This document shows positions 21,404 to 24,956 of a DNA stretch of 64,000 nt, piece after piece; within the stretch, counting starts at the first letter, position 1, and each line of letters opens with the position of its first letter. Where the stretch lies: assembly GCA_018262855.1 (NCBI GenBank), contig JADFDO010000002.1, positions 187,107-251,106 of the forward strand, written 5' to 3'. Origin of the DNA: Methanolinea sp. GTDB lineage: Archaea; Halobacteriota; Methanomicrobia; Methanomicrobiales; Methanospirillaceae. Both the position numbers and the translations under genes were made by a program. Under the pieces are notes generated by a model. That model searched no databases. It was not told where the DNA came from and worked only from the letters and a program-made list of their open reading frames with translations.

Positions 21404-21781
21404 TCAGGGCGGGGAGTAAAGGGCCTGGATTGCCCCGAGTATGGCCTGGCTAAGACATTCGATCTCGTCGTATCGAGGCTCTTCTGTCCCACGTTTTGGG
21501 ATCCCTTTTCTCGTCGCAATGAGGTACGCGTCAGGGGCTTTTCCGATCAAGTCCATCCTCTTCTTCACACAGCATTCCTCGCAGCCATCCACCGCGATCA
21601 GATACTCATCCTCGTCGCATTCCTTCTCCAGTGGTCGTGCAAGGGAGGTGAGCTGGACATGACGAGTGACGAGGGCCGGGTGCCGGAACCGAAGTATATT
21701 TCCGGTCATCGTCGTGAGTTTCCCGGTGTGTGAAATTCCCGAACAGGTCAGGAGAAGGGTTGGCCGGTCGTCATGATTCAT
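21404..21781 (-). CDS. DGC-motif putative metal-binding protein
   Basis: LLLTCSGISHTGKL and IAVDGCEECCVKK match the CSG...DGC Cys pattern of the DGC domain family. 125 aa, same strand as acr3. Confidence 0.6.
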   Translation of the reverse strand: MNHDDRPTLLLTCSGISHTGKLTTMTGNILRFRHPALVTRHVQLTSLARPLEKECDEDEYLIAVDGCEECCVKKRMDLIGKAPDAYLIATRKGIPKRGTEEPRYDEIECLSQAILGAIQALYSPP

Positions 21782-21898
21782 GCTGATTCATCCTGATGTG
21801 AGGCGAGATGCACCAACATGGTTCCTTCCGTAGTAAACCATCCGGGCAGAGTGCTGAGTGTAGTTCCCGAAGGGATTCCGTCGATGCAGAGATCATGT

Positions 21899-23080
21899 TT
21901 ATGTGAACCATCCTTTTGTTCGGAGACAGATCTTCACCAGCAAGAGCATCGCCGGTACCTCAATCAGCACCCCTACAACCGTTGCCAGTGCAGCTCCTGA
22001 TGCAAGCCCGAAGAGGATCGTAGCCGTAGCGATGGCGACTTCAAAATGATTTGAGGCCCCGATCATTGCCGAAGGTGCAGCATCCTCATAGGTGAGGTGG
22101 ATCCTCTTCGCGAGAATGTACCCGATGGTAAAGATGAGCATCGTCTGGAGGAAGAGAGGGATGGCGATCCAGACGATTGTGAGTGGCTGGTTCAGGATGA
22201 TCGCTCCCTTGAAGGTGAAGAGGAGGACCAATGTCGAGAGTAAGGCGATGATGGTGACCGGCGTCAGGTAGTGGACGAACTTCTTGTTGAACCAGTTCTC
22301 TCCCTTCGCCCGGATGATAAGTCTTCTCGAGATATACCCGGCCACGAGCGGGAGGGCTACATATACGGCGATCGAGAGGGCAAGCGCCTGCCAGGGAACC
22401 GGGAGCTGGCCGATACCCAGGAGGAACCCTCCCAGGGGGCCATAGAGGAAGAGCATCGCGAGCGAATTGATTGCGACCATCACGAGGGTATGTCCGTCGT
22501 TGCCCTTTGCAAGGTATCCCCAGACGAGAACCATGGCTGTGCAGGGGGCAATCCCGAGCAGGATGCATCCGGCAAGATAGCTCCTCCAGAGCGGGATCTC
22601 GAGCATCTTTATCCCGTCAACCACCACAACGGTTCCATCCCCGTACGTCGCACCTGCCGGGAGATCCAGGCCAAATGGCATCTTCACAAGATCGATGGCA
22701 TCAGGCCCGATGAATCCTATGAACAGAGATCCCAGAAAGAAGAGCGCGAGAGCATACATGGTGAAGGGCTTGATGGCCCAGTTGATGAACAGAGTGAGAG
22801 TCACCGGCCTGATATTTTTCCCTGCCTTTAGGACTTCAGCGAAGTCGATCTTTACCATGATGGGATACATCATGAAGAAGAGGGCAATCGCGATCGGGAT
22901 GGAGATGACCGGGGCCTCTCCCGAGTAGATAGCAAGGGAGTCGAGATACCGGGCCAGCTCGGGGGCGTAATTCCCGAGCAGGATGCCAATTCCGATGCAG
23001 AGAAGCACCCAGATTGTCAGGTACCGCTCGAACCAGCCGAGTCCCTTTGGTTCCTTGGTGATAATGGATTCACCTGGCAC
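21899..23080 (-). CDS. acr3: ACR3-family arsenite efflux permease
   Basis: [23 protein letters not shown]-terminus, about 10 TM helices, [10 protein letters not shown] with the conserved Cys-containing segment. GTG start preceded by a GGAGGG RBS. Confidence 0.9.
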
Positions 23081-23240
23081 AAGAGATACCCTCCTGTCTT
23101 CCTGTCAATTCCCTATCTTGGTTGACCGGGAATTCAACATCGTCCGGCGCCCTGGCATCAGAGCCCTTCACAATAGGATTTTTGACTGAGGGCAAGGCAA
23201 CAAACAACGATTTCATCATAACCACTGCTCACTCCCCGCG

Positions 23241-23573
23241 TCACTTCTCTCCACAACAGGATGACGTTTCAGTAGTATCTGCACAACAGGAACCCGCTTC
23301 ACCCCCGCAGGTGCAATTGTCCATGTCTTTTCCCCTGAGAGCCGCACTGATCATCGCCCAGGCACAGCCGACCCCACTCTGCACATCGATCGCCTGGGCC
23401 GGGCAGTTGAGGGCACAGGCTCCGCACTCCATGCACCGGGTTGAATCAGTGAGTACTGCCGTTTCAGGCCCTTCCGCGAACACGCCGTGAGGGCATACCT
23501 GGCTGCATCGCCGGCAATTGATACATCGCTCCGGATAGTACAGAAGGGTATTCTCACGATACGAGTCGAACAT
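23241..23573 (-). CDS. hgcB: HgcB-type 2x[4Fe-4S] ferredoxin with Cys-rich C-terminal tail
   Basis: CINCRRCSQVCP and CMECGACALNCP motifs, an additional Cys in GVGCAW, and a tail with CTCGG, SCC and SSCCGEK. The start shares TGATG with the hgcA stop. Confidence 0.85.
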   Translation of the reverse strand: MFDSYRENTLLYYPERCINCRRCSQVCPHGVFAEGPETAVLTDSTRCMECGACALNCPAQAIDVQSGVGCAWAMISAALRGKDMDNCTCGGEAGSCCADTTETSSCCGEK

Positions 23574-24673
23574 CAGGCCACCTCAAGGAACCATAGGATG
23601 GCGGAGAGAATGGCAAGGAGGATCCCGCACCCTGCCATGGCAACCATCACCCGGACATACCTGAATATCTCTTGTTTCACCCCGGTCCGCGATGTGTAAG
23701 GGGTGCAGCCCGTGAAGTTGAGTGCCAGGTACGCTACCACAGGCGGAATGATGAGCAGGGGAATGATCCCAGCCACGACATGTGCGAAGGGAACCATGGT
23801 GAATTGTGTTGCACCGTACACCGTAAACGGAAGTGCGACCAGTACCCCGAGAATCAATCCCTTCGTGCTGAAGTCCCTGGTCGGAAGGAACGGGAGGAGC
23901 GCTGGGAAGAGCACAGTTCCTGCCAGGACTGCCGTGACTGCAGCGAGGGATGCAACCGGACCTGCCAGGAAATACAGGAGTATCGCAGCCACGATGGCAG
24001 GCACTGCAGCGTGTACGAGCTCAACGGGAGCGAGTACAACCCGGTCGACAAACGGGAACTGGACCCGCCGCATCTCGGGAGTTGCCATTCTTGTCTTCAG
24101 GTATTCCGGGAGATCCCGGGCACGGACCGGTCCGTACTCCACCCGGAACACGGATCTCCGCAGGACCTGGTGGGCCGAGATGCCCGGAGCGCCGAGCTGA
24201 GGCACAATGACGGTCCGGTGGCGTACCACCGATGCCAGCCCCGTGCAGGATATCCTGTTCACGAGTTCATCGGTCCCGAAGGTCCCCTCCCCGGCCGCAC
24301 ACCAGACGTTGATCCCTTTTGTGTCCAGGACGAGGATGTAGGCGTCAATCCCAATGAGGGCTGACCGCAGTGCGTCGAAGCTGAGCGTGTAGTTCGCCGA
24401 TGCGAAGACCGGTGAGTCGGCTGTCGGATTGCCGAGACGGTAGAGTCCGGGTTTTACCAGGTGACCCATCCGGTTCACACCCCACCGTGCCAGGAAATGG
24501 TCGAACCGATCAACGAAGGTGAGTTTGCTTACTGTGGTCATCGGTTCCGCTGGTTGTGCAGGTGTCATTGTACCGCAGCAGGGAACATCGTCCTGCTGCC
24601 GGGCGCTGGAACAGCATGAGCACGATTGAGTATCAGGCGAGGATTGATTCAATCTGTTCTCACTCCTGCTCAA
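23573..24673 (-). CDS. hgcA: HgcA-type corrinoid protein (cytosolic cap-helix domain + C-terminal TM bundle)
   Basis: FLARWGVNRMGHLVKPGLYRLGNPTADSPVFASANYTLSFDALR...LVLDTKGINVWCAAGEGTFGTDELV, followed by about 5 TM helices. Start is uncertain: TTG 24673 (track), TTG 24652 (GGAGTGA RBS, 8 nt after the upstream stop) or ATG 24568. Confidence 0.85.
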   Translation of the reverse strand: MSRSENRLNQSSPDTQSCSCCSSARQQDDVPCCGTMTPAQPAEPMTTVSKLTFVDRFDHFLARWGVNRMGHLVKPGLYRLGNPTADSPVFASANYTLSFDALRSALIGIDAYILVLDTKGINVWCAAGEGTFGTDELVNRISCTGLASVVRHRTVIVPQLGAPGISAHQVLRRSVFRVEYGPVRARDLPEYLKTRMATPEMRRVQFPFVDRVVLAPVELVHAAVPAIVAAILLYFLAGPVASLAAVTAVLAGTVLFPALLPFLPTRDFSTKGLILGVLVALPFTVYGATQFTMVPFAHVVAGIIPLLIIPPVVAYLALNFTGCTPYTSRTGVKQEIFRYVRVMVAMAGCGILLAILSAILWFLEVA

Positions 24674-24956
24674 GGTCCTGCACGAGGGGCTTGAGAATTC
24701 CCTGGACCATTCCTGACAGGTTGCCGACTTTCATGAGCGCAAGGCAGCAGACCTCTCCCTCACGTTCCCAGCTAATCAACGCGAGCTTATCACCGGTTCC
24801 AATCCCGGCTTTCTGCCGGACTTCCTTGGGGAGCACCATCTGGCCCCGTTCATCAACGCTCAGAACAGCTTCCACGTTGCAGCATGTACCGGGGACACAT
24901 CCGTGAGATGGTTCACCGGATGACACAGAGGCATCTGGGATTCTCTTTTTCACCAT
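24660..24956 (-). CDS. AbrB/SpoVT-type DNA-binding protein with two vicinal Cys pairs
   Basis: VDERGQMVLPKEVRQKAGIGTGDKLALIS is a swapped-hairpin AbrB/MazE-type signature. Cys content: HGCVPGTCCNVE at the N-terminus and EVCCLAL at the C-terminus. Confidence 0.75.
   Translation of the reverse strand: MVKKRIPDASVSSGEPSHGCVPGTCCNVEAVLSVDERGQMVLPKEVRQKAGIGTGDKLALISWEREGEVCCLALMKVGNLSGMVQGILKPLVQDLEQE

Follow-up and report, generated by a model that had tools for sequence, protein, structure and literature searches.

Gene Content of the Locus

The window analyzed here, a stretch of 64,000 nucleotides (nt; 64 kb) of contig JADFDO010000002.1 from Methanolinea sp., carries the mercury-methylation genes hgcA and hgcB, preceded by hgcC, which encodes a small protein of the AbrB/SpoVT type, and followed by acr3, for an arsenite efflux permease, and a gene for a DGC-domain cysteine protein (Table 1). 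According to the initial annotation, these five genes are co-directional on the minus strand of an archaeal genome; the listing of open reading frames (ORFs) and a direct reading of the strand confirmed the arrangement, and the archaeal host was named correctly. Also as described there, the hgcA stop and the hgcB start are joined in a TGATG (23575–23571), acr3 opens with a GTG at 23080 behind a GGAGG ribosome-binding site (23093–23089) after a gap of 160 nt, and the DGC gene follows acr3 after 117 nt.

Gene identities were judged by profile hidden Markov models (HMMs) against curated cut-offs, and they are secure. All five proteins translated from the window ORFs score above the cut-offs: HgcC reaches 116.9 bits with NF040962 (cut-off 70), HgcA 441.1 bits with NF040863 (cut-off 275; model positions 3–324 of 325 covered), HgcB 113.6 bits with NF040864 (cut-off 99), ACR3 375.2 bits with TIGR00832 (cut-off 282.8) and the DGC protein 61.3 bits with PF08859 (cut-off 27). 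The hgcC-hgcA-hgcB series is a genuine mercury-methylation gene set of a methanogen, and the locus as a whole is probably an hgcC-hgcA-hgcB operon to which a two-gene leftover of an arsenic-resistance operon has become attached.

TABLE 1. Features of the hgcC-hgcA-hgcB locus and of related hgcC-arsM loci. Coordinates are those of the window unless another locus is named.
Feature	Position	Strand	Description
hgcC	24660..24956	(-)	98-aa (amino acid) AbrB/SpoVT-type protein; NF040962, TIGR01439, PF04014
hgcA	23573..24652	(-)	359 aa from conserved TTG; NF040863
hgcB	23241..23573	(-)	110-aa 2x[4Fe-4S] ferredoxin, C-terminal Cys-Cys tail; NF040864
acr3	21899..23080	(-)	393-aa ACR3-family arsenite efflux permease, GTG start; TIGR00832
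DGC-domain Cys protein gene	21404..21781	(-)	125 aa; PF08859
HgcC box TCTGA-ATAT-TCTGA	25003..25016	(-)	paired palindromic TCWGA pentamers, A/T spacer
TATA-like box AATAAATA	24991..24998	(-)	4 nt 3' of HgcC box, 34 nt 5' of hgcC ATG
hgcA Shine-Dalgarno AGGAG	24663..24667	(-)	within last hgcC codons, 10 nt before TTG 24652
hgcB-acr3 spacer	23081..23240	(-)	160 nt, 49% AT
DUF2703 5'-end remnant	21855..21898	(-)	inside 117-nt acr3-DGC spacer
hgcC-arsM divergent region, L212	1928-2165
hgcC-arsM divergent region, L223	4741-5000
hgcC-arsM divergent region, L225	4735-5000
hgcC-arsM divergent region, L226	4734-5000

One junction differs from the initial annotation, which had hgcC and hgcA overlap by 14 nt. 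This overlap holds only for the mechanical ORF (24673–23573, 366 aa from a TTG). The upstream TTG at 24673 is no start codon in the relatives (loci L084, L087 and L090); what is kept there is a start codon 8 nt past the hgcC stop, TTG in L084 and L087 and GTG in L090. Translation from the TTG at 24652 gives an HgcA equal in length (359 aa) to the homologues P0007 and P0016, and in the alignment P0007 and several other homologues begin at residue 8 of the window ORF. The Shine-Dalgarno sequence upstream of this TTG is kept as GGAGTGA in L084, L087 and L090, where the GGAG overlaps the hgcC stop. Because the starts of the relatives are conserved at the position of TTG 24652, hgcA likely spans 24652–23573 and follows hgcC after a gap of 7 nt rather than overlapping it. 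Both junctions, hgcC-hgcA with its 7-nt gap and internal Shine-Dalgarno sequence and hgcA-hgcB with its TGATG, are tightly coupled.

ACR3 permeases are characterized by a Cys in a P-C-T-A-M motif and a Glu in an H-F-E-V-A-I motif, and the corresponding GIAPCTAMV and NHFEVAIA are visible in the translated acr3 of the window. The ACR3 proteins of the window and of locus L089 carry an insertion of ~45–65 residues with respect to the 327-position family model.

HgcA and HgcB

Judged by their sequences, the two proteins are a canonical HgcA and HgcB, and the architecture given in the initial annotation was recovered in full, with GINVWCAAGEGTFGT, the two CxxCxxCxxxCP motifs and the C-terminal CC all seen in the translations; the comparison with profile HMMs placed both above the cut-off as canonical. 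The two competing assignments of HgcA that the annotation had named are excluded by the profile scores: as a CFeSP/CdhE paralogue it reaches 63 bits with the CdhE/gamma profile (cut-off 306), and as a member of the fused HgcAB-like clade 202.2 bits (cut-off 285).

In HgcA, a Cys-rich tail at the N-terminus precedes the corrinoid domain, whose cap helix reads NVWCAAGE, and a transmembrane domain forms the C-terminus. The essential Cys of the cap-helix motif N(V/I)WCA(A/G)GK is present (C125 in ORF numbering). The last residue of the motif (24289–24287) is Glu in the window and Lys in 88 of the 90 HgcAs examined, all 10 same-species contigs included; Glu was otherwise found only in L010, and its occurrence in the window may be due to strain variation or to an error in sequencing. 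The N-terminal segment SSxDTxSCSCC...PC is conserved in the alignment of archaeal HgcAs and reads SCSCC...PCC in the window (24652–24521). From the annotated proteins of the closest relatives (322 aa) this tail is missing, as the gene callers placed the start at a Met further downstream. The ratio of nonsynonymous to synonymous substitution rates (dN/dS) of HgcA, 0.10–0.15 overall and 0.26 for the N-terminal 44 codons, indicates purifying selection.

HgcB has two CX2CX2CX3CP motifs, an extra Cys in GVGCAW and the C-terminus ...SSCCGEK, and its gene start overlaps the hgcA stop. Its tail (23241–23300) is a variable-copy Ser/Thr-rich unit ending in CC, with two CC pairs in the window and at least four in relatives (L084 10969–11361; L090 10996–11520), and the lengths differ correspondingly (110 aa vs. 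130–174 aa, and in some cases 174–185 aa, among close relatives). A rearrangement breakpoint was considered as the cause of the short HgcB and was rejected in favor of copy-number variation of the C-terminal ...SSCC repeat. Segments with vicinal cysteines occur in all three proteins: at the N-terminus of HgcA, in the CC tail of HgcB and among the cysteines of HgcC.

HgcC Is an AbrB-Type Protein with Conserved Cysteines

The initial annotation suggested that the head gene encodes a regulator of a fold other than that of ArsR, and profiles, a PDB sequence search and structural comparison all agree on the AbrB/SpoVT fold. Besides the family profile, HgcC exceeds the cut-offs of TIGR01439 (32.4 vs. 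28.3 bits) and PF04014 (29.8 vs. 24.7 bits), and the PDB sequence search matched SpoVT (E = 0.002) and AbrB N-domains. The AlphaFold model shows a beta-beta-alpha-beta-beta arrangement with a C-terminal helix, and its top Foldseek matches are all SpoVT, AbrB, Abh, Sso7c4 or MazE (N-)domains, with probabilities of 0.85–0.98.

In the alignments, the loop DxRGQMVLPKxxR, which corresponds to the DNA-contact region of AbrB and includes its Arg, is invariant. The same is true of a vicinal cysteine pair, C70 C71, which the model tentatively places in the last beta-strand of the barrel; the Cys-rich N-terminus is variable (C20, C25, C26), with C20 nearly invariant. The dN/dS of hgcC is 0.12.

The distribution of the gene was surveyed in 80 hgcA loci from species-representative genomes. 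In 26 of them hgcC lies directly 5' of hgcA, mostly in Methanomicrobiales, Methanosarcinales and Methanomassiliicoccales, with a few Syntrophales and one member of the Anoxymicrobiaceae; an ArsR-like gene is located upstream of hgcA in about 18 of the 80. A gene for a PEMT-family (phospholipid or isoprenylcysteine-type) methyltransferase recurs beside hgcC in Methanoregulaceae and is absent from the window; it is found next to both hgcAB-linked and arsM-linked hgcC genes (L084 8575–9135; L087 7694–8284; L011 509–1219; L225 5350–5910).

An Operator-Like Element Upstream of hgcC

Upstream of hgcC lies a paired element, TCWGA-W4-TCWGA, which is new here and which we call the HgcC box (Table 1). 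A third, partial half-site, TTAGA (25025–25021), keeps the same 9-bp phase. The adjoining TATA-like box, conserved in the upstream alignments and reading TATAAATA in other Methanomicrobiales, is the predicted promoter element, and the position of the B recognition element (BRE) overlaps the 3' half-site of the HgcC box. The paired element generally sits 40–70 nt upstream of hgcC, with TCWGA half-sites repeated at a 9-bp period in 2–4 copies. When the window is compared with three relatives, the homology upstream of hgcC stops ~66 nt before the ATG, and both TCTGA-N4-TCTGA and the TATA-like box are inside the conserved block; the box is held at the same position in the relatives while the flanking DNA diverges, and it occupies the same place in distant lineages.

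Several counts bear on the specificity of the box for hgcC loci. Allowing at most one mismatch, it was found in 26 of 31 unique hgcC loci vs. none of 96 control segments, taken upstream of hgcA in loci that lack hgcC. In the 1.44 Mb formed by the window and the loci, TCWGA-W4-TCWGA occurs 33 times, every time upstream of hgcC, the one apparent outlier being an over-extended ORF call; there is no second exact box in the window. Four held-out loci, fetched afterwards from the isolates Methanolobus chelungpuianus, Methanofollis tationis and Methanoculleus chikugoensis and from a second paralogue on a 1.35-Mb contig, all have the box upstream of hgcC. It is present in archaeal and bacterial hgcC loci alike (the latter including L058 and L063), and a factor-specific site is therefore likelier than a basal promoter element. 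A metagenome scan for the box plus TATA was discarded as a test of specificity, since 118 of the 120 matches listed were due to chance in AT-rich DNA (median GC 32%).

HgcC Paralogues Linked to arsM

The two scan matches of normal GC content, L207 and L212, turned out to carry HgcC-family genes without hgcAB, and a homologue search started from one of their proteins revealed a clade (P0241–P0267) linked to arsM. Its members score 102–106 bits, above the HgcC cut-off, and they come from four independent lineages (L212; L223/L224; L225; L226–L228). In these loci, hgcAB is absent, and hgcC is divergently oriented, at a distance of ~260 nt, to a gene that scores 340–356 bits against an arsenite methyltransferase cut-off of 263; an FMN (flavin mononucleotide)-reductase-like gene usually follows. 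In L225–L228, the pair is part of an ars island with ArsR, DGC, ArsP, ACR3-like and ArsA genes. Each hgcC-arsM intergenic region has TCWGA boxes at both promoters, with no other boxes in the locus, and the arsM-proximal boxes bracket a TATTTAAAT element. The hgcA-linked and the arsM-linked paralogues are found together on the 1.35-Mb contig Ga0395706_000001.

These findings tie the HgcC family to arsenic genes independently of the acr3 adjacency in the window, and they support a predicted role of HgcC in which it binds DNA and regulates genes for metal(loid) methylation. The connection to metal(loid) stress drawn in the initial annotation is partly supported: the arsM-linked paralogues with the same box speak for it, and the five-gene adjacency on which it had been based is not conserved.

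Origin and Strain Variation of the acr3-DGC Cassette

In the closest relatives, whose HgcA proteins are 93 and 88% identical to that of the window, the order hgcC-hgcA-hgcB is kept, and acr3 is part of an operon that runs toward it on the other strand (ArsR | ArsP - orf90 - thioredoxin-like - DGC - ACR3 - DUF2703 - P5CR-like - DGC - orf159 - DsbD-like). In a third relative (79%), the neighborhood is free of ars genes. The acr3 of the window is 82% identical in nucleotides and 91% in amino acids to that of the ArsR-headed operon of L087 and L089, and it is inverted relative to hgcCAB; the DGC gene of the window, likewise inverted, is a homologue of the second DGC gene of this operon (DGC127, L084/L087; 76% nucleotide identity). 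The two genes that separate acr3 from the second DGC gene in the relatives are gone from the window, except for a 44-nt DUF2703 remnant: the blastn match of L087 14190–15415 to 21855–23079 extends 44 nt beyond the acr3 stop into the DUF2703 gene of L087. No homologues of ArsP, the thioredoxin-like protein or DUF2703 were detectable in the 64-kb window, nor was an ArsR at E < 1e-5 in phmmer searches with three ArsR proteins from the ars operons of the relatives. The remaining members of that operon are likewise missing from the window.

The cassette also varies among strains. A contig (L218) of Methanoregulaceae archaeon PtaB.Bin108 matches the window with 99.3% identity over 8.2 kb, and the HgcC of the window is 100% identical to a protein of that genome. 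Eight of the ten contexts with an identical HgcC show the series hgcB-acr3-DGC; in the remaining two, L214 and L215, which are long contigs from independent assemblies, both genes are missing, and only a remnant of acr3 (~139 nt) is kept. acr3 is also absent from L002. This presence and absence among contigs of the same species marks acr3-DGC as an orphaned, dispensable cassette. The hgcB-acr3-DGC arrangement is strain-variable and lineage-specific and not a conserved design; the reading of the five genes as purposely wired together, made in the initial annotation, was abandoned for this reason, the acr3 and DGC genes of the relatives being located in an ArsR-headed operon on the other strand.

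A simple inversion of the neighboring ars operon was considered as the origin of the cassette and found to be too simple an explanation. Synonymous divergence from the relatives amounts to 0.99 for acr3 and 1.5 for the DGC gene vs. 0.26–0.74 for hgcCAB, and the acr3 remnant of L214 and L215 is only 83% identical to the window, whereas the flanks of these contigs are ~98% identical to it over 12 kb. Together, the excess divergence and the 83% remnant point to allele replacement or transfer, that is, to more than one inversion. Both genes are intact and under purifying selection, with dN/dS values of 0.05 (acr3) and 0.12 (DGC).

Some further observations concern the surroundings of these genes. 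In L087, DGC and acr3 were called as a single fusion ORF of 530 aa (14235–15827, minus strand), corresponding to overlapping separate genes in L089, which hints at a functional partnership of DGC-domain proteins with ACR3. In L074, a Syntrophaceae metagenome-assembled genome, hgcC-hgcA-hgcB is followed by a convergent ArsR-ArsP-Trx-P5CR-like-Trx-ACR3 operon (9545–15730; Trx, thioredoxin); this layout, like that of the archaeal relatives, suggests that the hgcCAB-plus-ars neighborhood may move between domains. On the 5' side of hgcC, a fragment of ~250 nt (25303–25555) matches, with 81% identity, the 5' end of a gene for a Na+/H+ exchanger that sits ~8 kb from hgcC in the relative L084; the fragment is an apparent pseudogene remnant and would be a further sign of rearrangement at the locus.

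Elsewhere in the window, a low-GC stretch (44151–46322; 43% GC vs. about 55%) contains two secreted or lipoprotein-like ORFs, one of which (503 aa) has three internal repeats of a ~150-aa unit ending in ...DSIE..CP. Scans of the 64 kb for tRNA genes and Rfam families gave no match.

Transcription of the Locus

Transcription signals were sought as TATA-like elements, AT content and oligo-T runs, scanners for sigma-70 promoters and terminator hairpins being inappropriate for an archaeon. The sole strongly AT-rich, TATA-bearing block of the locus is upstream of hgcC, with up to 82% AT. In the hgcB-acr3 spacer, neither a TATA-like element nor four or more consecutive T are present, and it shows no homology to the ars operon of the relatives; its first 75 nt are common to the deletion variant. 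The 117-nt spacer between acr3 and DGC (48–49% AT) is likewise free of TATA-like matches and of T runs of this length. The acr3 genes of the relatives lie inside their operon, directly after or fused to a DGC gene, and that of the window would hence have come without a promoter. Read-through from the hgcC promoter into acr3 is thus a plausible and the most economical explanation, and the cassette, left with neither ArsR nor its operon promoter, would most likely be expressed in this way.

Alternatively, acr3-DGC might form an independent unit driven from the 160-nt spacer, where a promoter would be weak or atypical, possibly under an ArsR acting in trans; its position would then be a neutral by-product of rearrangements in an ars island that chanced to lie next to hgcCAB. 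We consider this doubtful. The following points are in its favor: the homologues of the nearest relatives belong to a separate, convergent, ArsR-headed operon, the cassette comes and goes among strains, the gap of 160 nt is long next to the 7-nt and overlapping junctions of hgcCAB, and a modestly AT-rich patch (64% AT) is located at 23222–23170. Points against such independence are a spacer devoid of TATA-like elements, the lack of a detectable ArsR in the 64 kb, the operon-internal origin of acr3 and the maintenance of both genes under purifying selection. Moreover, same-strand adjacency of hgcB and acr3, at gaps of 22–47 nt, recurs in two Bacillota (L068 and L082). In the survey, an ACR3 gene was found within ~3 kb of hgcA in nine of the 80 loci (eight above the ACR3 cut-off, the exception being a disrupted copy), and hgcC-hgcA-hgcB...acr3 lies on a single strand in two other Methanomicrobiales (L013 and L071).

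Proposed Role of HgcC

We tentatively propose that HgcC represents an unrecognized family of AbrB-type, Cys-bearing regulators in methanogens and some anaerobic bacteria, which may bind TCWGA-W4-TCWGA, act on hgcAB in cis and on divergent arsM genes, and be responsive to As(III), Hg(II) or thiol status; in the window, the regulator would also have captured an arsenite pump by read-through. We regard this proposal, which was derived from sequence comparison, as possible rather than probable. A narrower reading of the locus, which we regard as probable, is that HgcC, as an AbrB/SpoVT-type dimer or tetramer, would bind the TCWGA repeat; because the repeat overlaps the BRE/TATA position, it would most likely repress, and so autoregulate, a single transcript starting ~10 nt before the hgcC ATG. 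More speculatively, the Cys-Cys pair and the Cys-rich N-terminus may bind As(III) or Hg(II) and thereby relieve repression, and genes for metal(loid) methylation might be under the control of the family as a whole, either hgcAB in cis or a divergent arsM.

Several points weigh against the narrower reading and the read-through into acr3 that goes with it. The AlphaFold model of HgcC, built from 45 sequences, is of moderate confidence (mean pLDDT, predicted local distance difference test, of 62; 72–80 in the core). The excess synonymous divergence of acr3 and DGC points to a history of allele replacement or transfer and not of inversion alone, and selection on the two genes was measured over their whole divergence from the relatives, including the time before the rearrangement. 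The missing recognizable archaeal promoter in the 160-nt spacer is weak evidence for read-through, and the terminator criterion is weakly discriminating here, as no T run is found 3' of DGC either. Finally, acr3-DGC could be controlled in trans by an ArsR whose gene lies outside the window.

A different function for HgcC is also conceivable, namely that of a small accessory protein of HgcAB, such as a thiol-based metal chaperone or assembly factor, with some other regulator binding the TCWGA repeat. The translational coupling of HgcC to hgcA and the Cys-rich tails shared by HgcC, the HgcA N-terminus and the HgcB C-terminus would suit such a role, but we find it improbable: family members above the cut-off occur without hgcAB and divergent to arsM in four lineages, which argues against a mere accessory protein, the box accompanies hgcC across archaea and bacteria and recurs at arsM promoters, the loop for DNA contact known from AbrB shows no variation, its Arg included, and the geometry of the box is that of a known AbrB site. 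A third function, that of an antitoxin (PrlF/MazE) in a type II toxin-antitoxin module co-regulating hgcAB, was put forward in PMC10349881 and might be suggested by the Pfam MazE_antitoxin match and by the label "antitoxin PrlF" given to homologues in some sources. It is very improbable and was rejected, as neither the window nor any of ~40 inspected loci has a toxin-like neighbor of hgcC, hgcA being the downstream gene throughout, with none in the arsM-linked clade, and as the curated family assignment is HgcC.

Comparison with Known Systems

The gene at the head of the locus has been described before. An AbrB/PrlF/MazE-like gene directly 5' of hgcA was reported in 14 of 35 contigs and in 8 of 31 cultured methylators, six of these eight being archaeal, with the proposal that it stands in for ArsR in archaea (Zhang et al., 2023; PMC10349881). 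The hgcC of the window belongs to the same family (NF040962, "HgcAB-associated protein HgcC"), in the same position and orientation and in a Methanomicrobia host. In that study the gene is taken for part of a toxin-antitoxin system and no binding site is given, whereas here a box was defined, an arsM-linked clade was found and no toxin partner was seen. We found no literature linking hgcA or arsM with AbrB beyond this study.

Arsenic has likewise been connected to hgcAB. In Pseudodesulfovibrio mercurii ND132, an ArsR co-transcribed with hgcAB responds to arsenic, the arsenic-regulon hypothesis is presented in the same paper, and a DGC-domain gene belongs to an ArsR-regulated ars operon (Gionfriddo et al., 10.1101/2022.10.17.512643). 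A DGC-domain gene among ars genes is common to both systems. The ND132 regulator of arsR-hgcA-hgcB is, however, a winged-helix ArsR/SmtB protein and that of the window an AbrB/SpoVT swapped-hairpin protein; no ars genes lie beside hgcAB in ND132, and its arsenic response was shown experimentally, that of the window being a prediction. Beyond the papers cited, nothing relevant on DGC domains and arsenic was found in the literature. In diverse putative methylators, hgcAB regions are flanked by acr3, arsC and arsM (McDaniel et al., 2020; PMC7438021), and acr3 is immediately beside hgcAB there as in the window. Those examples are mostly bacterial and have ArsR, whereas hgcC heads the locus of the window, and acr3-DGC is what is left there of a larger operon, orphaned and variable among strains.

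An AbrB-like gene 5' of archaeal hgcA, ars genes beside hgcAB and the idea of an arsenic regulon are therefore already published, and only their combination in this organism is not. Within the literature searched, the HgcC box and the arsM-linked paralogues constitute an unreported hypothesis for the regulation of archaeal hgcAB. This matters because the questions of how hgcAB expression is controlled and what HgcAB natively does limit the prediction of methylmercury production. If the hypothesis is true, archaeal mercury methylation would fall within an arsenic/thiophilic-metal stress regulon, governed by a regulator unrelated to ArsR. A candidate operator in cultured Methanolobus, Methanofollis and Methanoculleus, an invariant Cys-Cys pair, a sister HgcC clade at arsM genes and natural strains with and without acr3-DGC are the handles gained, and together they make the placement of archaeal hgcAB in an arsenic/metal(loid) regulon directly testable.

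The closest parallel to the proposed mode of binding is AbrB of Bacillus subtilis, the in vivo site of which is TNCCA-WWWW-TGGNA (Chumsakul et al., 2011; PMC3025583). The two proteins have the same N-terminal fold, and the HgcC box has the same 5-4-5 layout of two pentamers separated by four A/T bases. The pentamer itself differs, TCWGA being palindromic in its own right, and HgcC is set apart by its conserved cysteines and by another type of C-terminal helix. Regulation by AbrB is global, whereas HgcC appears to serve one or two promoters only.

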